Source: a virus. Taken from it: a stretch of DNA of 64,000 nucleotides. Every line of letters begins with the position of its first letter. Positions within the stretch are counted from its first letter, which is position 1. The stretch spans positions 64,001-128,000 of IMG/VR virus record IMGVR_UViG_3300043409_001318, one strand, 5' to 3'. Shown here one piece after another: positions 176 through 19,851 of the stretch. Made by a program: the position numbers and the translations under genes. The notes under the pieces were generated by a model. It worked only from the letters and a program-made list of their open reading frames with translations, searched no databases and was not told the DNA's origin.

Positions 176-191
176 AAGAAGGAGAAAGAAA

Positions 192-374: not shown

Positions 375-393
375 AAGAAAGAGGAAAGAAAAT

Positions 394-610
394 GATTGAC
401 GGACTTAGAGGTAATGGTTAATTGAAAGGGGCTGGAGAGAAAACCAGCAAGAAGAAGAAAAGAGAAAAAGACCCTTGACGAAGTTTGAGGGTCGGTTAAG
501 AAGAAAAGGACAACGTGAGGATTGAAAGCCCCTCACCAAAGAAAAAAGGTCAAGGCGGAAAGTTGAGAAACTTCCTTGACGCTCAGCCAAGAAAGGTTAA
601 GTAGAAAGGG
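394..610 (+). promoter_or_regulatory. Three tandem early promoter-like motifs (TTGACG at 396, 475, 576)
   Basis: Each TTGACG is followed after 13-14 nt by GGTTAA; there is no credible ORF between them. Confidence 0.65.
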
Positions 611-665
611 CTGGAGGGAATGGTTCCCAAAGGCTCAGCAACTCAAAGTCGATACGAGGTTCACA

Positions 666-1088: not shown

Positions 1089-1201
1089 AAGTTGAGAGAT
1101 ATTAAGAGGTTGGAGGTTCAAAAGGCTTCCAGCCTCTTTTTCTTTTAGTGAGAGAGGAATTATCAAGTTCCCTCCAAGGTTTTTACAAATCTTCAAAGCC
1201 T

Positions 1202-1355
1202 CCTTGACGGTCTTTGAGGAGGGGTTAAGAAGAAAGGGTGAGGGTCGAAACCCCTCAGCAAGTTCCAAAGAGGGTCGAAAGGAAATCTTCAAAAGACCCT
1301 TGCGCCCCTTTGAGGAACGGTTAAGTAGAAAGTGTGGAGGGAATGGTTCCCAAAG
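1202..1355 (+). promoter_or_regulatory. Two tandem early promoter-like motifs (1204, 1300) plus leader hairpin GGGAA-TGG-TTCCC
   Basis: Same motif and spacing; the 21-nt leader is identical to 612-632. Confidence 0.65.
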
Positions 1356-1384
1356 CAAAACCCGCAATCAAGGTAATTCACCAA

Positions 1385-2470
1385 ATGGCTATCGACTTCA
1401 AGACCTTCCTTTCTATCGTTCCTTACGTTCTTGATGTGCGTAAGCCTGTTCTCATTCGCGGTCGCCACGGTATCGGCAAGAGCGAGGTTATCTATCAGAT
1501 CGCCCGTGAGCTTGGTCTGCCGGTGGTCGAACGTCGTGTTTCGCAAATGACTGAGGGTGACCTTCTTGGTATGCCTTCCGCTATCGGCGTGGAGATTGGC
1601 GGCAAGCGTGCGACTACTTGGGACGCTCCCGATTGGCTTCTTACCGCTTGTGCTCAGCCCGTCGTGATGTTCCTTGACGAAGTGGATCGCGGAACTACGG
1701 AGGTTCGACAGGGCATTTTTGAGCTTACTGATAGCCGCAAGATTGCCGGTGTCACGCTTCACCCCGGAACGCTGATTATTGCCGCTGTAAACGGAGGAAA
1801 TCACGGGTCGCAATACCAAGTTGGTGAAATGGACCCTGCTGAGCTTGACCGCTGGACTGCTTTTGACCTTGAGCCTACCGTAGAGGATTGGCTTACTTGG
1901 GCTAAGGACAACACCCACGGGCTTGTTTGGGACTTTATCAACCAAAATCGCAAGGATCTTGAGCACGGTGGCGATTTTGAGCCTAATAAGAAGTATCCTT
2001 CTCGTCGTTCGTGGAAGCGGTTGAATGATTGTCTCGTCGCTGGCAAGCTTACGACGGACGCGGCTACCAAGGCTTCAATCATTTACAACCTCGCTTGTGG
2101 ATTTGTGGGCTTTGAAGCGGCAGTTAAGCTCAAGTCTCACGTTGAAAACTACAAGGAGCAGGTTACCGTCGAAGATATCCTTGACGCTGGAAAGGTGAGC
2201 AAGACTAAGGACTTCACGGTTACCGATCACGCTGCGCTGGTCGAAAAGATCGCTCAGTCGGATCGTCTTAAGGTCGCTCTTGACGCTAAGATCCTGAAGA
2301 ACCTTGGTGCATATTGGCTTACCGTCCCCTCTGAGGTAAGCATGAAGCTCTACACGGAAGTTGGTCGTCAGTTCGTAAAGAACGCAGTTGCTATGCACGC
2401 AATTGAGATTGACGGCGTGAAGCTTGGTGGGCACCTTGCCGCGATGCTTGGAGCCAACCGCAACAAGTAG
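1385..2470 (+). CDS. MoxR-family AAA+ ATPase (AAA_5-like)
   Basis: Walker A GRHGIGKS, Walker B VMFLDE, sensor AAVN, Arg-finger region DPAELDRW, helix SRRSW; start set at ATG 1385 downstream of promoter and leader. Confidence 0.85.
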   Translation: MAIDFKTFLSIVPYVLDVRKPVLIRGRHGIGKSEVIYQIARELGLPVVERRVSQMTEGDLLGMPSAIGVEIGGKRATTWDAPDWLLTACAQPVVMFLDEVDRGTTEVRQGIFELTDSRKIAGVTLHPGTLIIAAVNGGNHGSQYQVGEMDPAELDRWTAFDLEPTVEDWLTWAKDNTHGLVWDFINQNRKDLEHGGDFEPNKKYPSRRSWKRLNDCLVAGKLTTDAATKASIIYNLACGFVGFEAAVKLKSHVENYKEQVTVEDILDAGKVSKTKDFTVTDHAALVEKIAQSDRLKVALDAKILKNLGAYWLTVPSEVSMKLYTEVGRQFVKNAVAMHAIEIDGVKLGGHLAAMLGANRNK

Positions 2471-2485
2471 TCGATAATCCCCATT

Positions 2486-2530
2486 AAACCCTCGCTTTTC
2501 CTTCGGGATTAGCGGGGGTTTTCTGCTTTT
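2486..2530 (+). terminator. Rho-independent terminator
   Basis: AAACCCTCGCT/AGCGGGGGTTT stem with inner c-TTCG-g hairpin and T-run, after the ATPase stop. Confidence 0.8.
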
Positions 2531-2611
2531 AATCCGCAAATTTCAAGGGCATTTCAGTTCTTGGAATGTGAAATGTGAAAGCCTTACGGGTGAGGTTCAA
2601 GGGGCACCAGC

Positions 2612-3025
2612 AAGACCCCCGTTAGACCCTCTTGGAACGCTTATGAGCCCCGAAGAGCACAAGGGGTAGGGGCGAGTAGGAGCGAGGAAGAAGAAGCCCC
2701 ATATCGCAATAGGTTTAGCAAGTAGTTTTGGACCAACGCGCAACCTCTTTTAGAAGAAAAAGATCAGATAAAGCCCTTGACAAACCAAACTAAACTTTTG
2801 GTTTAGGTTCGTTATTGTAAAAAGCTTGTGAAGCCTCTTGACTTTTAGAAGATACAAAATGTCGTTAGTTCTCCACAAGTAACGCAAGATCGGAACACCC
2901 TTCCAGCCTGCCCCGTGGAGGAACCTGTAAGACCTCCGCTAAGGGCTATGGGAACGCTTATGGGAGCGATGAAGGGCAAAGGGTAGGGTAAGGTGGCTCT
3001 CCAAGGTCCACGAGGCTCATAAGCG
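2612..3025. repeat. Degenerate direct repeat pair plus inverted copy in a non-coding region
   Basis: GGAACGCTTATG at 2634-2645 and 2951-2962 with similar flanks; GCTCATAAGCG (3015-3025) is the reverse complement of 2638-2648. Confidence 0.6.
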
Positions 3026-3148
3026 AAATGGTGATGTTGAGAGAAGTTGGTGGGCTGTCAAGGGTAAAGAAGAAGAAAGTTGAAGAAAGTTTCTCCTTGA
3101 CGATCAAGGTGGACCCGTTAAGAAGAGTGCGAAGGAGAAAGAAAGAAA

Positions 3149-3325
3149 ATGGCAAAGCTCATCGGCATCTACCTCATCGCGGTTTCTCACCTTTCCAACA
3201 TCGTGCCCCTTGCAGTTCCCGAAGGCGAGGTTAGTGGAGGTGGCGCGGAGATCGAAGCGGTTTACCTTCCTGCTGGTTTCACCGGTCCTATCGTCGCTGC
3301 TCCTTTTGATGTCAAGGTCTTTTAA
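3149..3325 (+). CDS. Small hypothetical early protein (58 aa)
   Basis: Own translation MAKLIGIYLIAV...FDVKVF; promoter at 3097 and GGAG SD; below the ORF-track cutoff. Confidence 0.65.
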   Translation: MAKLIGIYLIAVSHLSNIVPLAVPEGEVSGGGAEIEAVYLPAGFTGPIVAAPFDVKVF

Positions 3326-3384
3326 GAAATAAAAAGTCCTTGCTCTTATCCACCAACCTGTTAATAGGAAGAAGAGGAGGGAAG

Positions 3385-3981
3385 ATGAACGGTCAAGAAC
3401 GGATAGCAGCGATCAAAGCTTCTGCTGGATGGGCTACGCTTTCTGCAAGGCATCAAGATTTCGTCAATTCTGTTGAGGAATTCGTCAAAACCCGTCCTCT
3501 TTCGATTGGTCAAGAAAGCTGGGTTGAACGTGTTGAAAATATGGTAGCCAACCCCGTCGATCCTTCTTGGTTTGACCTCAATAACGAGGAAAATCAAAAG
3601 AAGCGCGCTTATACTATCCAGCACTACAAGGCTGCGGGTTTTTATCACGTTCAAACTACGCGAATGGAAGCCGATCCTGCTTTTATGCCTAATAAAGAAC
3701 TTTGGGATAGAATGTGGGGAAACAAGTATATCAACGCGGCTTTTACGAGGTGGACAAAAGGATCGCGCTTCAAAATCGGCGATATGGTAGTCAATAAGTA
3801 TTTTACTCATTACTACGGAAAGATCGCGGTTGTTGAAAGCGTCAAGTGGAATAATTCGTGCTGGATTTATGACGCTATTGCGCTTAGTCCGGGCGAAAGT
3901 TGTCCTAATCCAAAAATGCAGATGATTGATGAAAAGCACTTGCTTCCTGCTTCTAATCGCAATCTTAAAAATCGTATCTAA
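3385..3981 (+). CDS. Hypothetical early protein with C-terminal 'FKIGD' small beta-barrel-like domain
   Basis: ORF 3340-3981; start moved to ATG 3385 (GGAGG SD); RFKIGDMVV motif. Confidence 0.7.
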   Translation: MNGQERIAAIKASAGWATLSARHQDFVNSVEEFVKTRPLSIGQESWVERVENMVANPVDPSWFDLNNEENQKKRAYTIQHYKAAGFYHVQTTRMEADPAFMPNKELWDRMWGNKYINAAFTRWTKGSRFKIGDMVVNKYFTHYYGKIAVVESVKWNNSCWIYDAIALSPGESCPNPKMQMIDEKHLLPASNRNLKNRI

Positions 3982-4063
3982 TCCTTAGTCGTCAAGGTCT
4001 TTCTCTAAAAAAGATTGACCTTGACGGCTTTTCATAGCGGGTTAACTTCAAGGAGGAGGAAAG

Positions 4064-6893: not shown

Positions 6894-8063
6894 ATGGAAA
6901 CCGAAGAAACTTCCTACGATCTTAATAGGGATCTTTACTTTCTTTTGAAGGACGAGCCATTCTTCGCTACCTTCTCTCGCAATATCAACAAAACTTCTTC
7001 TACCGCTATTCCAACTGCGGGCGTGAGGATCAATAAGGAAACCCAGCAATTTGAAATGATTTACAATCCTTCTTTCTTTGGAAAGCTGGAAGATAAGGAA
7101 CGTATCGATGTTCTAAAGCATGAGTTCTATCATGTTATTTTTGAACACGTTACAGGTCGTCTTCCCCCCGAAGGAATGACGAAGATGTGGAATATTGCTA
7201 CGGACCTTGCGATTAATTCCCATCTTCCCAACATTCCAAAAATGGCTTGTATTCCGGGTGTAGGGAAGTTCGCTGATTATTCCCCTCGTCTTTCCTCCGA
7301 ACAATACTTTGATCTTCTTAAGGAAGATCCCGAAATGAATAAGGAACCTCAAGAGGGTGAAGGGGGCGAAGGGAATTTTGACGATCACGAAGGTTGGGGC
7401 GATGAAGCCATTGATAATACTATGCGAGAAATTGCTAAGGAGCATCTTAAGGAAGCTCTTGGCAAGGCAGCAAAGGAAGGCAACGCAAAGAATTGGGGTT
7501 CTGTTCCTTCCGATATTCGCAAGCAAATCATGGATAAGCTTGAAGCAACCGTAGATTGGCGTAATATGCTTCGATACTTTATCAAGACTTCTCAGCGTGC
7601 GGATAAGAACTCTACCGTTCGCAAGGTTAATAAGCGGTTTCCTCGTATCCACGCTGGCAAGAAAGTCAATCGTGTTGCGAAGATTGCGATTAGTATTGAC
7701 CAAAGCGGATCTGTATCAGATGAAATGCTTGCTCTATTCTTTACCGAATTGAATGAGCTTGCGAGCCTTGCGACATTCACGGTTATTCCCTTTGATACAC
7801 GGGTCGATCAAAAGCTTGTGTATGTATGGAAGAAGGGTAAGAGCCATGTATGGGAACGTGTGATGTGTGGTGGTACGGATTTCAATGCTCCTACCAAGTA
7901 TGTCAATGAAGAAGGTGATTGGGATGGTCACATTATTCTAACGGATATGTGTGCTCCTAAGCCTGTTAGTTCTCGTCCTTCTCGTATGTGGTTGACTGAT
8001 AAGTCCAACGCAGCCAACCCATACTTCAAGACTTCCGAGCTTGTGGTAGCGATTGGTAAGTAA
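6894..8063 (+). CDS. Metallopeptidase-like (HExxH) plus vWA domain protein (DUF2201-like), usual partner of MoxR ATPases
   Basis: LKHEFYHVIFEH, WNIATDLAIN, acidic linker DDHEGW, MIDAS IDQSGS, GGTDF. Confidence 0.85.
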   Translation: METEETSYDLNRDLYFLLKDEPFFATFSRNINKTSSTAIPTAGVRINKETQQFEMIYNPSFFGKLEDKERIDVLKHEFYHVIFEHVTGRLPPEGMTKMWNIATDLAINSHLPNIPKMACIPGVGKFADYSPRLSSEQYFDLLKEDPEMNKEPQEGEGGEGNFDDHEGWGDEAIDNTMREIAKEHLKEALGKAAKEGNAKNWGSVPSDIRKQIMDKLEATVDWRNMLRYFIKTSQRADKNSTVRKVNKRFPRIHAGKKVNRVAKIAISIDQSGSVSDEMLALFFTELNELASLATFTVIPFDTRVDQKLVYVWKKGKSHVWERVMCGGTDFNAPTKYVNEEGDWDGHIILTDMCAPKPVSSRPSRMWLTDKSNAANPYFKTSELVVAIGK

Positions 8064-8246: not shown

Positions 8247-8362
8247 GGAATGTATCACCCATACTTGACAGGCATGTTATATTACATTAGGTGCTCATTT
8301 GCGACACGGGGATAATTTTTGAGATTTTTTGACTATTTAAAACAGTTAAAAGGAACTATAAT

Positions 8363-9586
8363 ATGAAAAATTTATTTGAAAACTGGAAGGCTTACCTCAA
8401 GGAAGCAATCGTAGATACTCCTAGTGAGAGACTGTCTGATGTTTTTGATGATAATGGGGTTATGCAAGAAAAAGTTATCGCTGTTATCAAGGACGCAAAA
8501 GAAAAACTTGATAAGTTCTTAAGCTCTCAAAATTTAAAAATAACAGAAATGTTTGTTGTTGGTGCTGCTGTTACTTATCAGTTTTCTCCTTCTTCCGATA
8601 TCGATACAACCGTTGTTATTCCAAACATAACAGATGAACAGTCGAAACAAGTTGATAATTGGATGGAAGAAAACTTAAATTATTCAAATTGGTCTGTTGA
8701 TGGAAGTAGCCGTCCTTTTCAATTTAAACCAGCTTCATCAAATATTGGATACAAAAATGTAGACGCAGCTTATGATCCTTTTAATAAGAAATGGATTAAA
8801 GAACCAAACCTTGAAACAACAAAGAAAGAATATAATCAAGTTGTTTCGGACCCGCAATCAAAAGAAAGAAAGATGTATGCCTTTGTTGAGAAACACATTC
8901 AACCATCTTTACAACAGTTGCTTAACATATTAAGCAACACAAGTTTAAATGAAAACGTTTCTGATAATATTAAAAATGCAATTAAAAATGCTTTCAAACG
9001 TTATGAAGTATTAAAAAAGAAAAGAGGTACTGCATACGGAGAAGAACCTTCACAAACAGGACGTATAAGCCAAAATTGGGGATTAGGAAACGTTTTATAT
9101 AAATTTTTAGATAGAGAAGGCTATAGTGAAGTATATGGGTATTTGAAAAAAGCAATTAAATCTGACTTCAAGATTGTTGATCAAGATTTTATAAACAATC
9201 TTAAACAAAAATTAGAAAATGTTCTCAAAGGAGAGCATGGTTATTCAGTAAATGAAACAAAGGAAAAAAATAAAATGGCTAAATTAACAGAATCATATTT
9301 AAGAGGTATGATAAAACAAGTAATGAATGAAATGCATGATATGTATGATGATTCACCAGAAGCTATGGGTAATGCTGCTGACGAGTATAGTATGGGCGGC
9401 TTTGATTCTATTGAAGAAACTGCTAAAAGATTGGGCGTTAATCCTATGAAATTAAAAGCATTTATAGAGAAAGAACAAGCTGGTGCAAGTGCTATGTATG
9501 ACGAAATGGGAGATGATCCTAATGACTATTTAGCAGAAAGAAAAAGATTTCTATCTAATTCAAGAACTGCTCCAAAACGTAGATAA
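8363..9586 (+). CDS. Pol-beta-superfamily nucleotidyltransferase-like protein with MKxLxENW leader; possible second in-frame start at 9275
   Basis: VVGAAVTYQFSPSSDIDT (G[S/A]...DxD); CTATTTA at 8333; internal AAGGA-ATG at 9275. Confidence 0.6.
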   Translation: MKNLFENWKAYLKEAIVDTPSERLSDVFDDNGVMQEKVIAVIKDAKEKLDKFLSSQNLKITEMFVVGAAVTYQFSPSSDIDTTVVIPNITDEQSKQVDNWMEENLNYSNWSVDGSSRPFQFKPASSNIGYKNVDAAYDPFNKKWIKEPNLETTKKEYNQVVSDPQSKERKMYAFVEKHIQPSLQQLLNILSNTSLNENVSDNIKNAIKNAFKRYEVLKKKRGTAYGEEPSQTGRISQNWGLGNVLYKFLDREGYSEVYGYLKKAIKSDFKIVDQDFINNLKQKLENVLKGEHGYSVNETKEKNKMAKLTESYLRGMIKQVMNEMHDMYDDSPEAMGNAADEYSMGGFDSIEETAKRLGVNPMKLKAFIEKEQAGASAMYDEMGDDPNDYLAERKRFLSNSRTAPKRR

Positions 9587-9607
9587 TATTTAATATTCTT
9601 CGTTAAG

Positions 9608-9640
9608 AAAAAAATCCCTAGAAGAAATTCTGGGGATTTT
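9608..9640 (+). terminator. Hairpin terminator with GAAA loop (second copy at 10443-10475)
   Basis: AAAATCCCTAGAA-GAAA-TTCTGGGGATTTT; A-run and T-run flanks suggest it is bidirectional. Confidence 0.75.
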
Positions 9641-9654
9641 AACTATTTAATAAC

Positions 9655-10266
9655 ATGAAAACACTATTAGAAAATTGGAAAAAATTTATAAATGAGCAAT
9701 CCCACATAATGGGAAACTATGAAGGACAAACTACAGAAAAAAAAGATAAACTTATTTCTTTCTTTGATGATTTGAAAAATATGAACAAAGAAAATGCAAA
9801 TCAAATTGCTTCTGTTTTATTGGGAACAAAACCTTTATATTTTAGTGCTGTAACTGTAATTCCTAATAATAAGTTCTCTCAAAAGTTTTTAGATTATTTA
9901 AGGTCTAGAAATATGATGTTTGCATCAGCTCCAAATATAATGGGAACTGGTAGTAATATATTTTTTATTGGAAATAAAGATAAAGTTGCACAAGCTTTAG
10001 AATTACAAAAAAATCCTTATATTGGTATTGAAAAAATGGGATTTTCTTCTGAGTTTAACAGCTGGGCAAAAGAAAATGCAAAACGTGAGATAGCTGCAAC
10101 TCCCGAATATCATAAAAGAATGGGAATTTTATTGGGATATGGAGAAGCTAATTCCGAGAAATTTTCTCAAGATTATATTTCAAAATGGAAAGAAGTATAT
10201 TCTCATTGGCAACAACAATCTCAAGACACTAATTCTTCTAATAGTTCTAAAACAGAAGTATTATAA
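9655..10266 (+). CDS. Hypothetical protein with MKTLLENW leader
   Basis: CTATTTA at 9643; leader MKTLLENWKKFINE; YHKRMGILLGY motif of unknown family. Confidence 0.75.
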   Translation: MKTLLENWKKFINEQSHIMGNYEGQTTEKKDKLISFFDDLKNMNKENANQIASVLLGTKPLYFSAVTVIPNNKFSQKFLDYLRSRNMMFASAPNIMGTGSNIFFIGNKDKVAQALELQKNPYIGIEKMGFSSEFNSWAKENAKREIAATPEYHKRMGILLGYGEANSEKFSQDYISKWKEVYSHWQQQSQDTNSSNSSKTEVL

Positions 10267-10280
10267 ATTACTATTTAAAA

Positions 10281-10421
10281 ATGAATTAATCACAATATAA
10301 AGGAAGTATTGATTCTGCACTTAGAGAATTAATGACCGTTCAAGAAGCCCTTTCTAGTGTTGACGAGGATTATATGTTAAGCGAATCCCGTAAATCAAGA
10401 ACTGCTCCAAAACGTAGATAA
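10281..10421 (+). pseudogene. Remnant of a small gene ending SRTAPKRR
   Basis: CTATTTA at 10271, ATG 10281, in-frame TAA at 10287, then an open frame to TAA 10419 with the same C-terminus as 8363-9586. Confidence 0.45.
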
Positions 10422-10505
10422 TCTTTAATTTAGTTTGTTAGCAAAAAAATCCCTAGAAGAAATTCTGGGGATTTTCATTATGGGTTATATCTATCTATTT
10501 ATTAT

Positions 10506-10700
10506 ATGGGGCTTTCGCGCTTTCATGTTGGAGATCTTGTTAAGGAGTTAAACCTTGATAAGTGTGGTTTTGTTGAAAAAATTGAAGAACATTATGTAAT
10601 AAGTGAAAAAAATTTTGTATTTGTTTATTACATAAGAATGTTTCATGATGGTGCTATTGCAATCTGGTTTTATGATGAAAAACTAATTAAGATATCATAG
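10506..10700 (+). CDS. Small 'HVGDLV' SH3/KOW-like protein
   Basis: RFHVGDLVK; CTATTTA at 10495. Confidence 0.6.
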   Translation: MGLSRFHVGDLVKELNLDKCGFVEKIEEHYVISEKNFVFVYYIRMFHDGAIAIWFYDEKLIKIS

Positions 10701-10702
10701 AG

Positions 10703-10909
10703 GTGCAAATGGAAAAAAATTTCGTTCGGTATAAAACGGAAGGATTGTTTGGAGATATTATAACAATTACAATTTCAAAAGAAGAAGCAATTGAAAGACA
10801 AATTAAATCTGGCGAAATAAACAATTATATTTATAATTCCAGAGAAGAAGCACTTAAAGATTTTATGAATTGTAATTGGGCTTCTTTCATTGAAGAAACA
10901 CCTTATTAA
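10703..10909 (+). CDS. Small hypothetical protein
   Basis: ORF track; GAGGT SD. Confidence 0.6.
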   Translation: MQMEKNFVRYKTEGLFGDIITITISKEEAIERQIKSGEINNYIYNSREEALKDFMNCNWASFIEETPY

Positions 10910-10923
10910 TACTATTTAATAAC

Positions 10924-11778
10924 ATGAAACTCTTATTAGAAAATTGGAATCGTTATCTTAAAGAAAGTGAAATAGTTTCTTATCAACAACAAGTTGGAGA
11001 TATTGAAACAATCGCTCAAGATATCTCCGATAAAGTTCAAGAGTTTATGTCCGATCATGGATACGATTGGTTACGACAAAATGCCAGCATTGTTGAAAAA
11101 GAAATTCAAGATGAAATAAGAAAAAACTTTAATCGTGATATAACAGAAGCTGGTAGTGGTTCATTTAGAACAACATATATGGTTGATAATGATTATGTTA
11201 TTAAAGTTGATTCTTCTATAAATGGTTCTGGAAAACAAATGAATAAAGAAGATGGAGAAGTTGGAAGAAATCCAAAGTATTCTTCAATCTTTCCAAAAGC
11301 TTTAGGTGTTGCTCCAGATGGTTCTTGGGTTGTATTACAAAAAGTTCATGAGATACAAGATTTAAAAACTTTAATTACTCTTTTTCCAAATAAAATAATT
11401 CCATCTACATCGTTTGGAAAATTTTATACTCAATCATTATTATCTATTGCTTTAAGTTATCAAGTAGCTGCTTTACAATACGACCAAAATCAAATGGATT
11501 TTCACAAATATCAATATGAAAGTATGTTTAAAAATTCTTTAGTAAAAGATATTGGTAGAGACGTTACTTTTCAAGAATTTATAAAATCTTGGATATCTCC
11601 TACATTTATAACGGTAGCAAAAGCTGTTATAGAATATGGTTTAGACGCTGATGAAGCTGTGCGTCCTTATAATTCTGGATATGTTGTTGAAGAGAATGGA
11701 GAAAAAAGATTTGTTATTCTTGATTCATCCGTTCAAAAAACCGTGGAAGCTGGTCTTAATGCTTTTAACAACCCATAA
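10924..11778 (+). CDS. Protein-kinase-like fold protein (atypical catalytic loop) with MKLLLENW leader
   Basis: GSGSFRTTY..VIKV, WVVLQKV, VRPYNSG, VILDSS. Confidence 0.6.
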   Translation: MKLLLENWNRYLKESEIVSYQQQVGDIETIAQDISDKVQEFMSDHGYDWLRQNASIVEKEIQDEIRKNFNRDITEAGSGSFRTTYMVDNDYVIKVDSSINGSGKQMNKEDGEVGRNPKYSSIFPKALGVAPDGSWVVLQKVHEIQDLKTLITLFPNKIIPSTSFGKFYTQSLLSIALSYQVAALQYDQNQMDFHKYQYESMFKNSLVKDIGRDVTFQEFIKSWISPTFITVAKAVIEYGLDADEAVRPYNSGYVVEENGEKRFVILDSSVQKTVEAGLNAFNNP

Positions 11779-11790
11779 GGATTATTTATC

Positions 11791-12747
11791 ATGATGAAAT
11801 TATTATTAGAAAATTGGAAAAGATATATTAAAGAAGAATTAAGACCAGAAGATTATGAAGATTTCCCACAAAAAGAAAATGAAGAAGCAGAAGCTTATTT
11901 AGGAAATCCAAAAGAAATTGGTGAATTTATTTATAGAGCTTTTCGTGAAGAACTTGAAAAGCAACCAGATGATACTGAAGCTCAACTTTGGTCCGATAGA
12001 ATTGTAAGCGATGCTAATTCTAAAATTAGAAAACAATTTCCAAATGTAAAGTATCTTGGTCATGGTGTATTTAGAACTGCTTTTACGTTAAACAAAAATT
12101 TAATTATAAAAGTTAATACTTCTTTTACAACTGATAGCGGGCAGTTAATGAATAAAGACGATTTTACATTAAGTCGTGATTCTAAAACTTCTAAAATATT
12201 TCCAAGAGTTTATTCTCACGATCCAAACTTTAATTGGATTGTTATGGACTTGGTTTTTCCAATTGTAACACCAAAAGAATTTTGTTCTTTCTTTCCAAAC
12301 AAATTAATTCCTTCTTCTTTGATTAGCAGTAATACTATATTTTATAGATCAATATTACAAAATTCTATAAGATATAAAGTTGCTAAAGTTGCACAAGACG
12401 ACGAAACACTGAAAAAGGTTCAATACTTACATGATGCTACTATTAAAACTACATTAGAACCAATAGTAGGTAAACCTATAACTGTGGAAGAAATAGTTAG
12501 TGGATTTGACCAAACATTTTTTGAAGTTTGTAGTGCTATTGAAAAATATAATATAAAAATTATAGAAATAAGACCAAATAATACAGGCTTCACGATTGGT
12601 GAAAGTGGTAATAAACAATTTGTAATTTTAGATTCTTCAATTGACGCAAGTTTAAAAAAAGGACTTAATGAACCAGAACCTAAAGCTGCTCCTCCAAAAC
12701 CAGATAAACAAATATTAAATGCTGTAACTGCTCCCCCTAAAAAATGA
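11791..12747 (+). CDS. Protein-kinase-like fold protein, paralog of 10924, with MKLLLENW leader
   Basis: GHGVFRTAF..IIKV, WIVMDLV, EIRPNNTG, VILDSS. Confidence 0.6.
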   Translation: MMKLLLENWKRYIKEELRPEDYEDFPQKENEEAEAYLGNPKEIGEFIYRAFREELEKQPDDTEAQLWSDRIVSDANSKIRKQFPNVKYLGHGVFRTAFTLNKNLIIKVNTSFTTDSGQLMNKDDFTLSRDSKTSKIFPRVYSHDPNFNWIVMDLVFPIVTPKEFCSFFPNKLIPSSLISSNTIFYRSILQNSIRYKVAKVAQDDETLKKVQYLHDATIKTTLEPIVGKPITVEEIVSGFDQTFFEVCSAIEKYNIKIIEIRPNNTGFTIGESGNKQFVILDSSIDASLKKGLNEPEPKAAPPKPDKQILNAVTAPPKK

Positions 12748-12962
12748 AATATAAAATTGGAGATATTGTTGAAGTAACCTTATCTCCAAAAAAAGGTTAT
12801 TCTCAAAAAACTCCACCTGTTATGGCTTTAATAAAAGATATTGATGATACAAAAGTAAATTTTAGAAAAACTGCTTATTATGTTTGGTTAATGAGTTCTC
12901 TAAATGAAACTTGTTTATGGGTAGAATTAGAAAAGTATAAAGTAAAAAAACTAACAGATTAA
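12744..12962 (+). CDS. Small 'KIGDIV' SH3/KOW-like protein
   Basis: KYKIGDIVEV. Confidence 0.6.
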   Translation: MKYKIGDIVEVTLSPKKGYSQKTPPVMALIKDIDDTKVNFRKTAYYVWLMSSLNETCLWVELEKYKVKKLTD

Positions 12963-12999
12963 CTATTTAATTTGTTATATTATAAAAGGAAAATATTAT

Positions 13000-13293
13000 A
13001 TGAAAATTACAGAAGCTAAAATACGTCAAGTAATAAAAGAAGAAATACAAAACGTATTAAATGAAATGCACAATGAAGATCCAACATCATTAGGACTTAC
13101 TGGTCCAAAAGTTGCTGCTGGCGTTGCTGGGGCTGTTGGTGTCAACGGATTAATTAAATACTTAGAACAAGCTTTAATGGAACATCCAGAATGGAGAGAT
13201 AACGTAGAAAAATTTTTAATGGCAGGCAACGAAACAATTAATAGTGTTGGTAATGCTGTCAGCGGTATGTTTGAAAATAAAAAAAGAAAATAA
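13000..13293 (+). CDS. Small putative head-associated protein
   Basis: MKITEAKIRQVIKEEIQNVLNE leader; CTATTTA at 12963. Confidence 0.6.
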   Translation: MKITEAKIRQVIKEEIQNVLNEMHNEDPTSLGLTGPKVAAGVAGAVGVNGLIKYLEQALMEHPEWRDNVEKFLMAGNETINSVGNAVSGMFENKKRK

Positions 13294-13349
13294 TTCTTTC
13301 TTGACTTTCTAATTTGACCTGCATAAGATGTATACTCTTAGGAGATAGT

Positions 13350-13835
13350 ATGTCTGTGCAGGTTGATTATTTTTCTAGTTCAAAATTTATTGTAAAAGTG
13401 GATAAAGCTGAGCGTCTAAAAGACCTTATTGAACTTCTTAAAGAAGAAGGAAATACTGGATCTGGTTATTATAGTAGTGATCATTATATAAATCTTTATG
13501 ACTATGGTAATAATGCTTTTTCTCTTCATACAGGTGGGTATTGTGATGGGAGTCCAGAACTTAAGGACACCATTATAAATGAATATAATAGCGAAGAATA
13601 TGAAAGTGAAGAAGATCAAAATAGTTATTGTGGCTCTCATAACATTTTTGATTTAATCCAAAATATGCTACAAGAAGAATCTTGGTTTTTTGTTGACTCT
13701 ACTGGATTTGAGAAAGGTAGAATTTATAATAACACTTCTTTTTATCACGCAGATGGTAGGAATGGTTCTATAAATACATGGGAACTAAAACGTAAGATCC
13801 TTGAAGAACACGGAGTAGACAGCAAACAGTTATAA
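13350..13835 (+). CDS. Hypothetical protein
   Basis: ORF 13314-13835; start moved to ATG 13350 (GGAG SD); TTGACT-N17-TAAGAT promoter upstream. Confidence 0.65.
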   Translation: MSVQVDYFSSSKFIVKVDKAERLKDLIELLKEEGNTGSGYYSSDHYINLYDYGNNAFSLHTGGYCDGSPELKDTIINEYNSEEYESEEDQNSYCGSHNIFDLIQNMLQEESWFFVDSTGFEKGRIYNNTSFYHADGRNGSINTWELKRKILEEHGVDSKQL

Positions 13836-13837
13836 TA

Positions 13838-13870
13838 TAAGCCCTCGCAGAAATGCGGGGGTTTTCTTTT
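13838..13870 (+). terminator. Rho-independent terminator
   Basis: AAGCCCTCGCA-GAAA-TGCGGGGGTTTTCTTTT. Confidence 0.8.
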
Positions 13871-13898
13871 ATGAAAAACTATTTATTAAGAGGTAAAA

Positions 13899-14606
13899 AT
13901 GAATATAACTCCACAACAGAAACACGTTATTGATTGTGTTTTATCAATTTTTGAAACAGGAAGAATTCCAACTACTGCTTCTTATTCTACTTGTTCTATT
14001 TTAGAAGATGGAGCAGGTATATCATATGGAAAACATCAATGCACCGATAAAGCAGGTTCATTAGATTTGGTTTGTAAGAAGTATATTAAATTAGGTGGAC
14101 AACAAGCAGAACCATTAAAACAATATATGAATTATCTTGCTACAAATCAATCTTCGAAATTTGGTTCAAGAAGAGAAACTTACCCAACTTGGCTTGTATC
14201 CTTGATTAATCTTTTAAAATCTGCTGGTCCAGATCCTTTAATGCAGAAAGCACAAGATGAAATATTTGATGTAAATTATTGGCTTCCAGCAGTTAACCAT
14301 TGTAATAATATTGGATTGAAAACCCCTTTAGGTCATTTAATTGTTTATGATAGCACAATTCATTCTGGTCCTAATGGCGTAACAATAATTCGTAATCTAT
14401 TTCCTCAAAAATCTCCTGCTAATGGTGGCGATGAAAAAGAATGGTGTCTTGCTTATATTAACGCAAGAAGAATTTGGCTTTTAAATAATCCAAACGCATT
14501 AGTTAAAAAAACAATTTATAGAATGGATGCACTTAAAGCTATTGCTGATGCTAATAATTGGGAACTTAAAACTCCTCTTGTAGTAAGAAACGTAAAAATT
14601 ACCTAA
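13899..14606 (+). CDS. GH46 chitosanase-like (lysozyme-fold) glycosidase, candidate endolysin
   Basis: SIFETG, ILEDGAGISYG, YWLPA, YDSTIHSG pattern; CTATTTA at 13879. Confidence 0.7.
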   Translation: MNITPQQKHVIDCVLSIFETGRIPTTASYSTCSILEDGAGISYGKHQCTDKAGSLDLVCKKYIKLGGQQAEPLKQYMNYLATNQSSKFGSRRETYPTWLVSLINLLKSAGPDPLMQKAQDEIFDVNYWLPAVNHCNNIGLKTPLGHLIVYDSTIHSGPNGVTIIRNLFPQKSPANGGDEKEWCLAYINARRIWLLNNPNALVKKTIYRMDALKAIADANNWELKTPLVVRNVKIT

Positions 14607-14637
14607 TTAATAGGTAAGATTAAAGGATAAAAAAATA

Positions 14638-14919
14638 ATGTTAACAGAAAGAAGACTTAGACAAGTAATTCGCAAAATAATTATGGAAGTTACTGGTGCG
14701 GACGCAGAAAGATTTACGGCAATTGCCAATTCAGCCAGACAACAAATGGGTTCTGAACAAGAAAAATTTTTTAATAATAAATTAGGTAGTTCCGATAAAG
14801 AAAGAGCTAATAACATACAAAGGCTTCAACATTTAATTATGGGTGGAAAAGATATTGAACCTAAAGATAAGGGAGCAGTTTCTACTCTAATCCAGAAAGC
14901 ACTTGCTGAATTAAAATAA
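14638..14919 (+). CDS. Small putative head-associated protein
   Basis: MLTERRLRQVIRKIIME leader; CTAATTA at 14603. Confidence 0.6.
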   Translation: MLTERRLRQVIRKIIMEVTGADAERFTAIANSARQQMGSEQEKFFNNKLGSSDKERANNIQRLQHLIMGGKDIEPKDKGAVSTLIQKALAELK

Positions 14920-14950
14920 TCCAGTTAGAGATCCCACAGAGAGGTGTTTA

Positions 14951-15358
14951 ATGGAACGTCCTTCGTGGGATTTTATTTGGTCCTCATTTGCTTCTACAAT
15001 CGCTCAACGTTCTATGGACCCTAACTTCAAGGTGGGTGCCGTAATCGTTCCAGAAGACAATACAGGTGTGCTGGCGATTGGATATAACGGCGATGAGAAA
15101 GGTGGAGAGAATTGTAGGGATAGCGAAGAAACTGGTTCATCTGGTTTTATTCACGCTGAGATAAACGCACTTATTAAGATGGATTTTAATAACCCAAAAA
15201 GAAAGAAAATGTATGTAACTCTTTCTCCTTGTAAGATGTGCGCGAAAGCAATTATTAATGCAGATATAAAAGAAGTTTATTACATACAAGAATACCGTGA
15301 TGATGCAGGAATTAAATTACTACAAAATCACGGTATTAAGGTTTGTAAGATTATCTAA
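14951..15358 (+). CDS. dCMP deaminase
   Basis: KVGAVIV, GYNG, HAEINA, TLSPCKMCAKAI. Confidence 0.9.
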   Translation: MERPSWDFIWSSFASTIAQRSMDPNFKVGAVIVPEDNTGVLAIGYNGDEKGGENCRDSEETGSSGFIHAEINALIKMDFNNPKRKKMYVTLSPCKMCAKAIINADIKEVYYIQEYRDDAGIKLLQNHGIKVCKII

Positions 15359-16329
15359 ACAGGAATGTCGGAAGGCTTTGAAGTTCTTGTTGGTCTTTCG
15401 TTTGGATCGGCTGGTGTTAAAGCGGTTATATCTGATCTTGAATCAAGATAATTAATAACTGCTTTTAATACAAGCATAAGCATGTTTACGTCTGCTAATG
15501 CATCGTGCCAACCTTTATTTACAATGTCAAAGGCATCAATTAATTTACCAAGGGAAACGGTAAAGTATGGAGCACCAGCTTTATTTACTGCTGAGAGTTT
15601 AGTTAATAAACGCTTATCTTTCTCTGATAGATTTTTTCCTTGTTCTTCATCAGCTTTAAATTGTTTTAAGGCTGGTGTAATAAACATTTTGAATACTGGT
15701 ACTGTATCTAAAACAGCATCGTCAAGAACTGGAATTCCATATCTTTGGTGCATTTCATTAAGGTATCCAACATCGAACGGAGCATTTTGAGCTACCAATA
15801 TTCTATCTGGGTATTGTTGTACAAATTCATTAAATTTTGTTAGTGCTTCTTCCATAGATTCAAAACGAAATTCTGGTGCTATACCTTTTTTCATTCTTTT
15901 CTTTGGATCTTGTGAAACACCATAACCTGTCATAGAAAAGATTTGTGGAATAGTCATAAATGAGCTTTTCTCACCAGCAGCAGCTCTTTCTGCTTGCTTT
16001 TTCTTTTCCCAACCCATAAATCCTTTTGTTCTGTCGGATAAATTAATTTTAATATTAATTTGACCTATGATTTGTGGTTCTTGACCTTCTTCAAATCCTT
16101 TTGGATCAACAGCAATAGCAGCTAATTGTGTGATTTGATTGTAATCTTTTTCTGGTTTAAGACCTGTTGTTTCTGTATCAAAGAAAATCCAAGTTTTGTT
16201 TCTTGCACTTTCAACATTATTTCTAAATTCTGGAAAACTTCCACCAATTTCATCTCTGGTCATAGTTCTTTCATTAACGACTTTTTTAAACCCTCTCCAG
16301 CTTTCCATAATCAAACCAAAATTTTTCAT
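15355..16329 (-). CDS. DEDDh 3'-5' exonuclease (DnaQ/epsilon-like) with LIMESW leader
   Basis: FFDTETTG, AQNAPFD, HDALAD; the only credible minus-strand gene, preceded by CTAATTA on its own strand. Confidence 0.85.
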   Translation of the reverse strand: MKNFGLIMESWRGFKKVVNERTMTRDEIGGSFPEFRNNVESARNKTWIFFDTETTGLKPEKDYNQITQLAAIAVDPKGFEEGQEPQIIGQINIKINLSDRTKGFMGWEKKKQAERAAAGEKSSFMTIPQIFSMTGYGVSQDPKKRMKKGIAPEFRFESMEEALTKFNEFVQQYPDRILVAQNAPFDVGYLNEMHQRYGIPVLDDAVLDTVPVFKMFITPALKQFKADEEQGKNLSEKDKRLLTKLSAVNKAGAPYFTVSLGKLIDAFDIVNKGWHDALADVNMLMLVLKAVINYLDSRSDITALTPADPNERPTRTSKPSDIPV

Positions 16330-16351
16330 TTATAAACCCTCACTTTATTGG

Positions 16352-16375
16352 TAATTAGTATTTAAAAACTAATTA
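16352..16375. promoter_or_regulatory. Back-to-back divergent late-promoter-like motifs CTAATTA
   Basis: TAATTAG at 16352-16358 (minus strand) and CTAATTA at 16369-16375 (plus strand), between divergent genes. Confidence 0.65.
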
Positions 16376-16380
16376 GATAT

Positions 16381-16815
16381 ATGAACACAAAAAAATGGTA
16401 TAAATTTCTTCGCGAACAACAAGAAGAAGAAAAAGAAAATGGTATAGCATTAACAAAAAACGAAGAAGACATTAATGCTGACCCAATTGAAAAACATTCT
16501 GGATTAGATCCAATTGTTACAGATGATATTTCTGTATTTCAACTTGTTGTTAAAGCAGAATTTCGTAAAGGATCAAAAGTTCTTCTTACACAATTCAAAG
16601 ATATTATTAGAGGTATTGTTTCTGTTACTACAGTTGGAACGGAAGATCTTCCAGATGCCTCCGAAATGTATGATAGAAGGAATCTTAATGTTAAATTTGA
16701 ATTAGAACGTGGTGAGAATATCGATGAATATATGAGAGCCGTTCTTATTCCTCAATTAAGAAAGATTAGAGGTATGAGAGTTCTACATTACGGAAAAATA
16801 GAAAAAGTAAGATAG
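16381..16815 (+). CDS. Hypothetical protein with KKWYKFLRE leader
   Basis: ORF track; promoter motif at 16369. Confidence 0.7.
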   Translation: MNTKKWYKFLREQQEEEKENGIALTKNEEDINADPIEKHSGLDPIVTDDISVFQLVVKAEFRKGSKVLLTQFKDIIRGIVSVTTVGTEDLPDASEMYDRRNLNVKFELERGENIDEYMRAVLIPQLRKIRGMRVLHYGKIEKVR

Positions 16816-16859: not shown

Positions 16860-17159
16860 ATGGCCGAGACAAAGAAATTAAAAATTCCTGCTGAAAAATT
16901 AGCTACTGCTGCTAATATTGATGCTTTATTAAAAACTCAAAAGAAAATAAAAGAATTATATTCTTATGAAATGATTATTGGCGAAGGTTATGGACATTAT
17001 TATAGTCCAGAAGAAAGAACTTTTGTAAAAATAAGAAAAGGAAGATTAGTTATTCGTTTGTCAGAGGACACCGATAAGAAAGGAAGATATCTTATCTACG
17101 CGGAGAACCAAAAAATATTGGTTCCAAAAGAAGAAATAATAGACATAGGATATCACTAA
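16860..17159 (+). CDS. Hypothetical protein
   Basis: ORF track, downstream of the sigma70 promoter. Confidence 0.7.
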   Translation: MAETKKLKIPAEKLATAANIDALLKTQKKIKELYSYEMIIGEGYGHYYSPEERTFVKIRKGRLVIRLSEDTDKKGRYLIYAENQKILVPKEEIIDIGYH

Positions 17160-17632
17160 TGAAAAAAGAACGTTGGTTTTCTGGCGATTACAAAGAAACA
17201 AATTTAGAAGAAATATTTGCTGATATTACAAATCACTCCAAGAATAAAGGAAAGATTTATATTGGATCTGACTCATACGTCCAAAAACAAAATTGTGTGT
17301 TTTGTTGTGCGATTGTTCTTCACGGAGCAGAAGGTCAAAGTGGTGGAAGATATTATTATCATAGGTTTTTAACTCATAAGAATAATTTTCCTTCTATGAC
17401 AGCAAGAATTACTCATGAAGTTCAAAAGTCAATTGAGATTGGAATGCAAGTTGGTCAAGAATGTCCTAATGTAAAAGTAGAACTTCATTTAGATATTAAT
17501 AATGATAAAAGAATGTCTAGTCAAAAAATGGCAGAATCTATGACAGGATGGGTTAAAGGACTTGGATTTGATTGTAAGATAAAACCAGAATCTTGGGCTT
17601 CATCAAAGATAGCAGATATACACACCAAATAA
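17159..17632 (+). CDS. RNase H-like protein, YkuK/DUF458 family
   Basis: IYIGSDS, EVQKSIE, ELHLDIN, IKPESWASSKIAD. Confidence 0.8.
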   Translation: MKKERWFSGDYKETNLEEIFADITNHSKNKGKIYIGSDSYVQKQNCVFCCAIVLHGAEGQSGGRYYYHRFLTHKNNFPSMTARITHEVQKSIEIGMQVGQECPNVKVELHLDINNDKRMSSQKMAESMTGWVKGLGFDCKIKPESWASSKIADIHTK

Positions 17633-17964: not shown

Positions 17965-19851
17965 ATGAAATTTATGCTAAATAAACAAACTGGTGTCTTT
18001 ATTTTAAGAGAAGATATATTTGATAGAATCTCTCGTCAAGCTAAGGCTGAGGTCGGATCAGAAATAGCTAGTGAAAATGCCGCTGCTTCTGATAGAGCTG
18101 CGGCATTTTTAAAATCAATTGATAGGGTTAGAGATAATTATATCAAACAACTTTATGAGAAAAAAGAAACTGATAAACCTTCTTATTTAACTATTATTCC
18201 TTTGTTGGTTGATAAAGCCACTTCTAATAATTTAATAAACGAAATTAAAAAAAGTATTGATAAAGTTAACGCTGAATGTACACCATTTTTTACTGATATA
18301 AGAGATAAAAAACAAGTTGATTATAATAAACTTATTAATGCGTTACAGATAAATCTTAAAGGTACAGTTGCAAGATTAGTATTAGAAGCCATATCTGGAC
18401 CACCATTACAAACAGAAGTAATATTTCAATCAATTATAAAAAATTATATTGCTTTTTTAATAAACGAAACTTTATTAAAAGATTTATCTGATGAAGATAA
18501 AAAAAATGTTTTTGGAAATGAGGAAAATTTTAAAAAATTTCAACAAATTTTTAGTAAAATGTTAATGGCAACAGATGAAGAAATTAAAGTTTATCAAGTT
18601 TCTCTTCAAAAATATAATATAGCAAAAGATAAATTAAAAACAAAAAGTCCAGAAGAAGCAAAAGAAGAAGAAGATACAAAAAGAGCAGAAAAAAAAGAAC
18701 AAGATGAACTTAGACTATATTTAACAGGAAAGAATAAAGAATTAGCCCGTTTTGTTCGTATATATGGTATTCTTTCAAGAACAGAGGGCATAGGTGATCA
18801 AGATAAACATCAACAGGTTATTGACGACTTTGAATCATATATTGATGAATTTTCTGATTTAATTGATAGTAATGAAAAACTTGATAAAGAAGGATCAAAA
18901 GATCGGATGGAACTGATATTAAATTCTATAGAGATGAAATATGGTTCTCTTAAAGATGAGCTTAAAGAATTAAATGCAGCAAAAGCAGTAAAAGAATCAA
19001 AAACTCTCAAAGAATATAGAGAAGAAATTAACAATCTTCTTATTCCTCACATGCAGAAACAACTTGGTTTTAATCATCCTCCAACAATTAATTTTGCTGA
19101 TGATCAAGGAAACGCACAAGATATGTTTGGAAAAACAGCATATTATAATCCAAGCACAAGCGAAATAACCGTTTATATAACCAATAGACACCCAAAAGAT
19201 ATCATGCGTTCTGTTGCTCACGAAGTAATACACCACGCACAGAACCAAAGAGGAGAGTTTGAGAACTCATTTAATCTTGGTGAAGAAGGTTACGCACAAA
19301 ACAATTCCCATTTAAGAAGTATGGAAGAAGAAGCTTATTTAAGCGGAAACATGATATTTAGAGATTGGGAAGATCAATTTAAAAAACAAAGGAACCAAAA
19401 AACTATGGTAAACGAAAATAATTTAAGAGCCAAGATAAGATCTATGATTGTTGAAGAAATCGCCAATCAAACCGAGAACAAGCCAGCCAAAGAACATGAT
19501 AGTAATTGCGAATGTGAAGATTGTAGTAAGAAAAGAACATTCTTAAAGAATAAGGGTGTTAAAAACATAGCTGAGAAAGTTGAAAAAGAAATTATGCCAC
19601 TTAAAGAATGGAGAAATATGGAATTAAACTCATTACTTCTTCATAGATTTGGTCTTGTTTCTCCACAAGTTTTAGGTGAGAAGAAAAAAATGCCTATGAA
19701 AAAAGATATAGAAGATGCCGATGGTGATGGGGATACAAATGAAAAAGTACCAGCTTTCTTGAAAAAAGGAAGTGCTAAAAAAACTCCAACCAAGAAAGGT
19801 AAAGTCCCACCACAATTTTTAAAAGGTAAGAAAAAAGATGAAAGCAAGTAA
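17965..19851 (+). CDS. Large putative virion protein with coiled region and zincin metallopeptidase motif
   Basis: HPKDIMRSVAHEVIHHAQ (HExxH), EEEAY; CTATTTA at 17953. Confidence 0.65.
   Translation: MKFMLNKQTGVFILREDIFDRISRQAKAEVGSEIASENAAASDRAAAFLKSIDRVRDNYIKQLYEKKETDKPSYLTIIPLLVDKATSNNLINEIKKSIDKVNAECTPFFTDIRDKKQVDYNKLINALQINLKGTVARLVLEAISGPPLQTEVIFQSIIKNYIAFLINETLLKDLSDEDKKNVFGNEENFKKFQQIFSKMLMATDEEIKVYQVSLQKYNIAKDKLKTKSPEEAKEEEDTKRAEKKEQDELRLYLTGKNKELARFVRIYGILSRTEGIGDQDKHQQVIDDFESYIDEFSDLIDSNEKLDKEGSKDRMELILNSIEMKYGSLKDELKELNAAKAVKESKTLKEYREEINNLLIPHMQKQLGFNHPPTINFADDQGNAQDMFGKTAYYNPSTSEITVYITNRHPKDIMRSVAHEVIHHAQNQRGEFENSFNLGEEGYAQNNSHLRSMEEEAYLSGNMIFRDWEDQFKKQRNQKTMVNENNLRAKIRSMIVEEIANQTENKPAKEHDSNCECEDCSKKRTFLKNKGVKNIAEKVEKEIMPLKEWRNMELNSLLLHRFGLVSPQVLGEKKKMPMKKDIEDADGDGDTNEKVPAFLKKGSAKKTPTKKGKVPPQFLKGKKKDESK

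Follow-up and report, generated by a model that had tools for sequence, protein, structure and literature searches.

Short N-terminal leaders on unrelated proteins of an uncultured T4-type phage as candidate interchangeable capsid-targeting tags

Leader-bearing genes of the window and the genome

The stretch of DNA analysed here (the window) is 64,000 nucleotides (nt) long and corresponds to bases 64001-128000 of a 184,352-bp IMG/VR record of an uncultured virus (IMGVR_UViG_3300043409_001318; CheckV completeness 100%). The subject of the analysis is a short peptide with the pattern MK-x-L-[LF]-ENW-x-x-[YF]-[LI]-x-E, here called leader A, which begins four genes of the window (8363, 9655, 10924 and 11794), together with a second peptide of the same genome, here called leader B. 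The source virus is a T4-type phage, with a Gp23-family major capsid protein (PF07068; genome 166708-168465), a gp21-type prohead protease (gene at genome 154097-154690; Peptidase_S77, PF03420, at genome 154166-154612, E 8e-29 in the Pfam scan), a portal, a baseplate wedge, a tail tube and a baseplate hub. In its large terminase it is closest to Microcystis phage Mel-JY01 and Flavobacterium phage immuto, each at 43% identity, and to a 484-kb uncultured phage (41% to 43% over the three). A blastn comparison of the region with 50,697 phage records returned no nucleotide match. The leader-bearing genes of the window, with scores from a hidden Markov model (HMM) of each leader, and the features associated with them are as follows.

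8333-8339, plus strand: promoter-like motif CTATTTA, upstream of gene 8363
8363-9586, plus strand: leader A (8363-8404; MKNLFENWKAYLKE) on a Pol-beta-type nucleotidyltransferase (NTase), with the core at residues 15 to about 295, followed by a hinge, an internal leader B and a helical tail of about 85 residues
9281-9334, plus strand: the internal leader B of gene 8363 (KLTESYLRGMIKQVMNEM; residues 307-324), identical at 14 of 18 positions to the N-terminus of g153401
9655-10266, plus strand: leader A (9655-9696; MKTLLENWKKFINE; 24.7 to 30.5 bits) on a 189-residue cargo with no fold assigned
10924-11778, plus strand: leader A (10924-10965; MKLLLENWNRYLKE) on an APH/ePK-like kinase-fold cargo
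11791-12747, plus strand: leader A (11794-11835, from the second methionine of the open reading frame (ORF), (M)MKLLLENWKRYIKE; 25 to 30 bits) on a paralogous kinase-fold cargo
13000-13293, plus strand: 97-residue leader B protein (MKITEAKIRQVIKEEIQNVLNE; leader 13000-13065; 28.9 bits), with CTATTTA 30 nt upstream
14638-14919, plus strand: 93-residue leader B protein (MLTERRLRQVIRKIIMEV; 26.5 bits), with CTAATTA 28 nt upstream
15355-16329, minus strand: DEDDh (RNase_T) exonuclease (PF00929 at residues 48-83, E 4.6e-13), with a 45-residue N-terminal extension (…IMESWRGFKKVVNE)
16381-16815, plus strand: 144-residue protein with a short form of leader A (16381-16416; MNTKKWYKFLRE), the core W-x-x-[FY]-[LIV]-x-E lying at residue 6
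9643-9649, 10912-10918, 12963-12969, 14603-14609 and 16369-16375 (plus strand) and 16352-16358 (minus strand): further copies of the motif CTA[TA]TTA

When the core of leader A was back-translated as ENW-xx-[YF]-x-x-E, exactly the four sites named above were found in the window, where 100 shuffles gave an expectation of 0.00. With the leader HMM, a scan of all six frames of the genome gave 26 to 30 bits for 8363, 9655, 10924 and 11794 and for a fifth gene beyond the window, g9402 (MNQKLILENWRKFLKEE); over all scorings the four genes range from about 23 to 30 bits (22.9 to 29 for 8363). Every strong match was the first methionine directly after an in-frame stop. Weaker copies were found at g46105 (MIMESILNNWKGFLKE) and g10702, and an internal copy was found in g2218, where it separates a 2H/LigT phosphoesterase domain from a dual-specificity phosphatase domain. 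The original prediction, which was made on the window and had aligned six N-termini as a portable leader for loading enzymes into the phage head, was correct in that all six are present; four of them are strong members and 16381 (2.5 bits, not significant) carries the short form, while the N-terminus of the exonuclease gave no significant leader HMM score and is only a loose look-alike of leader A and a doubtful, unconvincing member. Its inventory was incomplete, as it lacked g9402, the two weaker copies and the internal copy in g2218, all of which lie outside the window, and also leader B at 13000, at 14638 and inside 8363.

The copies recovered from the genome stand on diverse cargo. Past the leader, 10924 and 11791 (32% identity over 295 residues, E 3e-45) are the only related pair among the leader proteins of the genome that were compared, four of which lie in the window. 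The core of 8363 has the invariant residues G67, S78, D79 and D81 of an NTase and matched ANT, AadA and CD-NTases in Foldseek, and the kinase-like protein 10924 matched APH(2'') and PsiK (E 3e-5); these labels, and that of the exonuclease, had been assigned from the letters and proved right. The leader was present in 14 of 14 homologues of 10924 and in every one of just four close homologues of the 9655 cargo, for which Pfam, PHROG and the Atlas gave no assignment, the Atlas search scoring at chance level. In the AlphaFold2 model of 8363 the core has a predicted local distance difference test (pLDDT) value above 90, and residues 1-9 and the hinge at 299-304 fall below 50; the model of 10924 has a pLDDT of 83, with the leader helix at 51 to 54 and residues 10-16 below 50. 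In both models the leader is a short low-confidence helix, and a junction of very low confidence links it to the well-predicted core, which fits an exposed tag. Asp and Glu show a moderate enrichment in the 15 residues following the leader (23% versus 16%). A weak match of the helical N-region of the kinase-like protein to the scaffold family T4_CASP (16 bits, below the 27-bit cut-off) was set aside.

Genes 8363, 9655, 10924 and 16381 and the exonuclease gene are preceded at 5 to 23 nt by the motif CTA[TA]TTA, with CTAATTA placed 5 nt upstream of 16381 and 22 and 40 nt upstream of the exonuclease gene, and gene 11791 has TTATTTA in its place; the motifs agree with what had been reported for these genes at the outset. 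The results showed that CTATTTA was the most enriched upstream 7-mer, preceding 28 genes in comparison to 2.6 expected. The motif precedes the baseplate wedge gene, two tail tube genes, the baseplate hub gene and the scaffold-like gene, as well as many more within the structural region, and it was found within 67 nt of 10 of the 16 leader genes in comparison to 35 of 222 others (odds ratio 8.9, Fisher p 8e-5).

The leaders in related viruses

Two scans of IMG/VR each returned at least 119 stretches with leader A, and each instance among the matches listed begins an ORF. After removal of the first 16 residues, 142 complete proteins among these matches fell into 87 BLAST clusters, 58 of which were singletons, so that the portability first proposed for a handful of enzymes proved far broader. 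The cargo (60 to 900 residues) includes Zeta_toxin/AAA_33 P-loop kinases, NUDIX, HAD_SAK_1, tRNA_lig_CPD (a tRNA-ligase-type 2H phosphodiesterase), 5'-nucleotidase, Amidase_2, Pkinase, DUF192 and PGDYG proteins, as well as APH-like kinases and NTases. Among 82 cluster representatives, 13 Pfam families were recognised, each in one or two members, and the majority matched no Pfam family; many of the tagged cargoes are small, about 100 residues, and carry no enzyme signature. The short form KW-x-x-[FY]-L-x-E, as in 16381, is common at the start of NUDIX and HAD homologues from related contigs.

The consensus of leader A is M-K-L-L-[LMFI]-E-N-W-R-x-[YF]-[LI]-x-E, in which M1, K2, E6, N7 and W8 are invariant. 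For an unbiased logo the search fixed residues 1-8 only and left positions 9 onward free, and the free positions were R9 in 83%, [YF]11 in 88%, [LIVM]12 in 92% (L or I alone in 82%) and E14 in 79% of cases. Position 14 still carries 2.9 bits of information, whereas the next positions have 0.7 and then about 0.3 bits, which is background, and since conservation ends at Glu14, leader A is a module of 14 residues ending in [LI]-x-E. The core W..[FY][LIV].E occurs 250 times, in 206 cases starting within the first 10 residues. R9 is encoded by five codons and L12 by six, and the leader loci span 33% to 60% guanine plus cytosine (GC); this synonymous variation, together with the spread in GC, indicates that selection acts on the peptide.

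Leader A is restricted to this type of virus. The complete relatives have 8 to 10 leader A genes, clustered in one island, and Peptidase_S77 was found in six of six complete leader-bearing records in addition to the source genome, and in three of four further large fragments. The 35 contigs of 25 to 108 kb are all fragments according to CheckV (12% to 59% complete), most implying genomes of about 180 to 200 kb, and no complete small phage with leader A was among the contigs listed. A scan of 185,579 prokaryote genomes (one per species) gave nine matching stretches, of which seven are short contigs (1.5 to 16 kb) of taxonomically scattered metagenome-assembled genomes with typical full-length leader A proteins, suggesting mis-binned viral DNA, and the other two are chance ORFs of 29 codons on chromosomes of Sphaerochaetaceae. 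The leader A pattern was not found in Mel-JY01, immuto or the 484-kb uncultured phage, and a full-text literature search for the leader motif strings returned no phage paper.

Leader B is a 22-residue peptide with the consensus M-K-[IL]-T-K-x-Q-L-K-Q-I-I-K-E-E-L-x-x-[VL]-L-x-E, which begins seven proteins of the source genome. Four of these (g153401, g154705, g155128 and g156293) flank the prohead protease gene in a head-module block at genome 153401-157288 (L006:5401-9288), and immuto and Mel-JY01 have positionally equivalent small head-module proteins with similar N-termini. Leader B was found on at least 57 proteins in the sampled IMG/VR contigs, mostly small ones (median 124 residues), and the 97-residue protein at 13000 is within the size range of the T4 internal proteins. 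In one recurrent family (L015, L037, L088 and L136), a leader-B-like stretch, [LM][DE]LEQIIREEL..[VL]L.E, lies about 100 residues from the N-terminus, which begins MNDLYG…, indicating that leader B is not strictly N-terminal.

The two leaders alternate on orthologous cargo in six families, namely the NTase and five further families in IMG/VR loci, for example L119 (leader B) and L106 (leader A) with 67% identity over 109 residues, and L099 (leader B) and L026 (leader A) with 30% over 501 residues. In the NTase family the core always starts E|AIVD-x-PS-xx-LSDIF, and upstream of it stands leader A (about 20 homologues), leader B (5), one of two other N-terminal types, EEFLRMQQLAGIITESEF (4), or almost nothing. 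Some NTase homologues (P0047-P0049 and P0056) have an N-terminal extension EEFLRMQQLAGI, whose RMQQLAGI equals the C-terminal motif (E/D)RM[RQ][RK]LAG[IL] of a 340- to 400-residue protein encoded directly upstream of the capsid gene, a probable scaffold by its position. The motif ends this protein in the source genome (genome 165654-166682, L006:17654-18682; C-terminus ERMRRLAGIK), in two complete relatives, in two further contigs, and in immuto and Mel-JY01. Leader A, leader B and RMQQLAGI on one NTase core are thus three alternative tags that all point to components of head assembly. The NTase family itself is large, since a profile search of 1.84 billion proteins gave 798 hits with very varied N-termini and no new principle, and the neighbourhoods of NTase homologues in IMG/VR added little.

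Two genes of the genome carry a leader in their interior. Most NTase homologues end at about 300 residues, and a relative has a free-standing tail protein (P0062) that starts MAKLTESYLRSMIKQV; taken with the hinge and the match of the internal leader B to g153401, this indicates that 8363 is a leader A-NTase fused in frame to a leader B-small protein. In the same way, g2218 is a 2H phosphoesterase fused to a leader A-phosphatase. If the tags are cut, both genes would encode polyproteins.

Capsid targeting and its alternatives

In T4, the internal proteins bind the scaffolding core through a capsid-targeting sequence (CTS), and gp21 removes their propeptides after Glu (PMC5694885, PMC3012670). 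Ten residues from the N-terminus of IPIII are enough for packaging, with residues 4 and 7 serving targeting and residues 8 and 10 processing (PMC9026906), and it has been suggested that the CTS may be a general means by which T4-like phages load varied proteins (PMC9026906, PMC3012670). The CTS MKTYQEFIAE was found in the T4 record at two genes, ipII and ipIII, whose DNA is identical at 30 of 30 positions. In the capsid alignment, the T4 gp23 cut FLTE|A (E65|A66) lies opposite ELLRE|S in the present phage, opposite QLLKE|A and ELLRE|Y in two relatives, and opposite QIVSE|A and QLISE|A in immuto and Mel-JY01, which supports a T4-like specificity for the S77 protease of the lineage as far as one aligned site can. 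The capsid propeptide (genome 166708-166880, L185:1-175) ends MARLLENQAKELLRE|S at this position. The residues before the cut (LLENQAKELLRE) look like leader A (LLENWRKYLNE), with an HMM score that is not significant; a copying of leader A from the end of the capsid propeptide was considered and, with a leader HMM score of -2.5 bits at rank 50, stays an unproven resemblance.

Taken together, we think it probable that leaders A and B are interchangeable, cleavable capsid-targeting tags of one uncultured T4-type lineage with genomes of about 180 to 200 kb, a judgement formed on sequence and predicted structure. Each tag would be a short amphipathic helix on a flexible stalk that docks its cargo, late in infection, onto the scaffold or core where the prohead shell assembles. 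The gp21-type S77 protease would then cut after the terminal [LI]-x-E and free the mature enzyme inside the head, from which it would exit with the DNA at the next infection, and the internal tags of 8363 and g2218 would be cleavable linkers through which one polyprotein gives two enzymes. Docking, cleavage, packaging and injection of the tagged proteins are steps that we infer. The analogy with T4 had been drawn in the original prediction, and the points of it that can be addressed from sequence bear it out, namely the S77 protease, the [LIV]-x-E at the capsid cut, the end of the leader at [LI]-x-E, the CTS-like spacing and the motif common to structural genes.

An indirect link to virions comes from three giant paralogues of the genome (g37546, g40704 and g43283), whose family has members in related contigs that begin with one or the other leader, A or B. 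The profile of this family matched protein AUZ95153 of phage Atu_ph07 (hhalign 96.6%, E 7e-10, 105 columns), which by matching gene lengths is gp394, and in purified Atu_ph07 virions gp394 was detected by 18 unique peptides that gave 41% coverage (PMC6102473, Table S5). The same protein (L188:748-771) starts MQYTDLIE|A, a possible 8-residue propeptide ending in L-x-E.

Several points weigh against capsid targeting. The link through Atu_ph07 is a remote homology of one domain, and the specificity of the protease is deduced from a single aligned capsid site. The co-occurrence of S77 with the leader could simply reflect the restriction of both to one lineage. The leaders have no detectable sequence homology to the T4 CTS, with which they have the pattern Ar-x-x-Ar-[IL]-x-E alone in common, and tblastn searches of cultured phages with a tagged HAD protein, a tagged 813-residue protein and a small leader B protein gave nothing usable, and no cultured phage was found to carry either leader. 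The late promoter for which we take CTA[TA]TTA is itself putative, and in other contigs the motif lies within 40 nt upstream of just 16 of 146 leader genes; a Shine-Dalgarno-like sequence lies within 16 nt of 88 of the 146. The Glu before AIVD is retained even in NTase homologues that have no leader, so that in this family the residue belongs to the core. Finally, the leader is conserved much more tightly than one would expect from the mutations that the T4 CTS tolerates, which hints at an additional or different partner.

Such a partner is the basis of the main rival, in which the tags would dock the enzymes onto another virus-encoded hub in the infected cell, with no packaging, and [LI]-x-E would be just part of the helix; the hub could be a complex of several enzymes for nucleotides or RNA repair, the machinery of replication or of transcription, or the phage GroEL-like chaperonin. 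The invariance of M1, K2, E6, N7 and W8, set against the tolerance reported for T4 (PMC9026906), would suit it, many of the cargoes act on nucleotides or RNA ends and could cooperate, and the tag is virus-specific, as any virus-encoded partner would need. However, docking on a hub explains neither why conservation stops at [LI]-x-E nor why leader B, which stands on the neighbours of the prohead protease, replaces leader A on the same cargo, and it leaves without explanation the scaffold C-terminal motif as a third alternative and the CTA[TA]TTA motif common to tail and baseplate genes. We regard it as unlikely.

The protease-type motif at which the tag ends and the flexible junction to the core would also suit a removable propeptide with an inhibitory or chaperoning role, zymogen-like, which keeps potentially toxic enzymes inactive and has no part in capsid targeting, and the cargoes do include Zeta-toxin-like kinases, nucleases and an amidase. 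This is very improbable in our judgement, as inhibition of 87 unrelated folds by one helix of 14 residues is unlikely, many cargoes are proteins of about 100 residues without an enzyme signature, and the sole protease known with such specificity acts inside proheads (PMC5694885).

The 5' end could alternatively be selected mainly as DNA or RNA, as a cassette for translation initiation and expression or as a recombination site, with a functionless peptide. Near-identical 5' cassettes of motif plus leader (ACTATTTAATAAC-ATGAAA…) at 9655 and 10924, the clustering of leader genes in islands of 8 to 10, and the likewise identical CTS DNA of ipII and ipIII (30 of 30) speak for this view, which we nevertheless hold to be very improbable, as synonymous sites vary freely while residues are fixed, the leader persists across loci of 33% to 60% GC, and different leaders are swapped on one cargo at a precise protein-level junction; a mobile cassette is in any case compatible with capsid targeting and is no replacement for it. 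A purely nucleotide-level element is ruled out by the synonymous variation, a Sec/Tat signal peptide by the amphipathic and charged character of leader A (K2, E6, R9, K10 and E14, with no hydrophobic stretch), the leader of a ribosomally synthesised and post-translationally modified peptide by cargoes that are folded proteins and enzymes of 60 to 900 residues, and one paralogous family with a conserved N-terminus by the unrelated cargoes.

Beyond the tags themselves, a wider account can be put forward only tentatively. The lineage may pre-load its heads with about 8 to 15 enzymes per genome, drawn from at least 87 cargo families, by means of plug-in tags copied from head assembly signals (the N-termini of core proteins, the C-terminus of the scaffold and perhaps the capsid propeptide end LLENQAKELLRE), with polyproteins split by the prohead protease, and the cargo of 2H phosphoesterases, NUDIX proteins, phosphatases, kinases and NTases might form a counter-defence and RNA-repair kit that is injected at the start of infection.

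If the capsid-targeting reading is true, these phages would hold the largest known natural repertoire of capsid-delivered proteins, and enzyme co-injection would turn out to be a modular strategy that is general among environmental T4-type phages rather than a trait special to the internal proteins of the T-even phages. A sequence rule based on the 14-residue tag would then predict injected proteins from metagenomes, providing a shortcut to candidate counter-defence enzymes, and the tags would be natural, short, self-removing means for loading foreign proteins into large phage heads. The exchange of tags on the same cargo, the reuse of the scaffold motif and the tags inside fused genes offer a concrete view of the origin and spread of such tags.

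Other genes lie near or among the tagged ones. Positions 1-4000 of the window form a block of 47% to 50% GC within a genome of 33% GC, with an AAA_5/MoxR-like ATPase ORF at 1343-2470, which together with a DUF2201 metallopeptidase with a VWA-like domain at 6894-8063 resembles a MoxR-VWA pair. A glycosyl hydrolase family 46 (chitosanase-like) protein at 13899-14606 (E 4e-20), with CTATTTA upstream, could act in lysis or as a wall hydrolase associated with the virion. A dCMP/cytidine deaminase at 14951-15358 (PF00383, E 3e-22) and an RNaseH_like protein at 17159-17632 (PF04308, E 2e-29) stand among the tagged genes and are themselves without a tag. A 628-residue protein at 17965-19851, with CTATTTA 5 nt upstream, a zincin-like HEVIHH motif and a Lys-rich tail, matched no Pfam family; an internal stretch of it (LRAKIRSMIVEEI) resembles leader B.

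Comparison with known systems

Among known systems, the T4 CTS is the closest in principle, and the present tags are, as we lean to believe, a new and unusually broad variant of it, with at least two interchangeable tags. Both are short N-terminal tags common to otherwise unrelated proteins and end in [IL]-x-E, and W8, [YF]11, [LI]12 and E14 of leader A are spaced as Y4, F7, I8 and E10 of the T4 CTS, a likeness of pattern only. Both also go with a gp21-type protease and a gp23-type capsid protein, and in both the tagged genes vary between relatives. The differences are in length, with 14 residues for leader A and 22 for leader B in comparison to 10 in T4; in conservation, which is far higher in leader A; and in cargo, with at least 87 clusters and many sizeable enzymes of up to 900 residues in comparison to a few small basic proteins in T4. 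The present system has at least two interchangeable tag families and internal copies in fused genes, and the packaging of its cargo is predicted.

The N- and C-terminal propeptides of T4 Alt and of the head and ejection proteins of phiKZ, 201phi2-1 and SPN3US provide a second comparison, in which enzymes or large proteins are loaded into the head and trimmed after Glu by a gp21-related protease, from propeptides with multiple cleavage sites (PMC5694885). Those propeptides, in contrast, are long and protein-specific with no portable consensus tag, and the motifs of the giant phages are A/S-x-E.

Encapsulin cargo-loading peptides resemble the leaders in that a short conserved peptide directs diverse enzymes to an HK97-fold shell in a modular way, but they are usually C-terminal, bind the shell directly and are uncleaved, and no DNA is packaged and nothing injected. 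A cargo-loading peptide of this kind is ruled out here, as the shell is a gp23-type capsid with portal, terminase and protease, and the tag ends in a protease motif. Similarly, the Dar proteins of P1 (DarB, Ulx, Hdf and DarA) are large head enzymes that are incorporated in an ordered, N-terminus-dependent manner, described as "capsid targeting", and delivered with the DNA (PMC9024508); they differ from the tagged proteins in having no consensus tag across the cargo and in belonging to another head assembly lineage.

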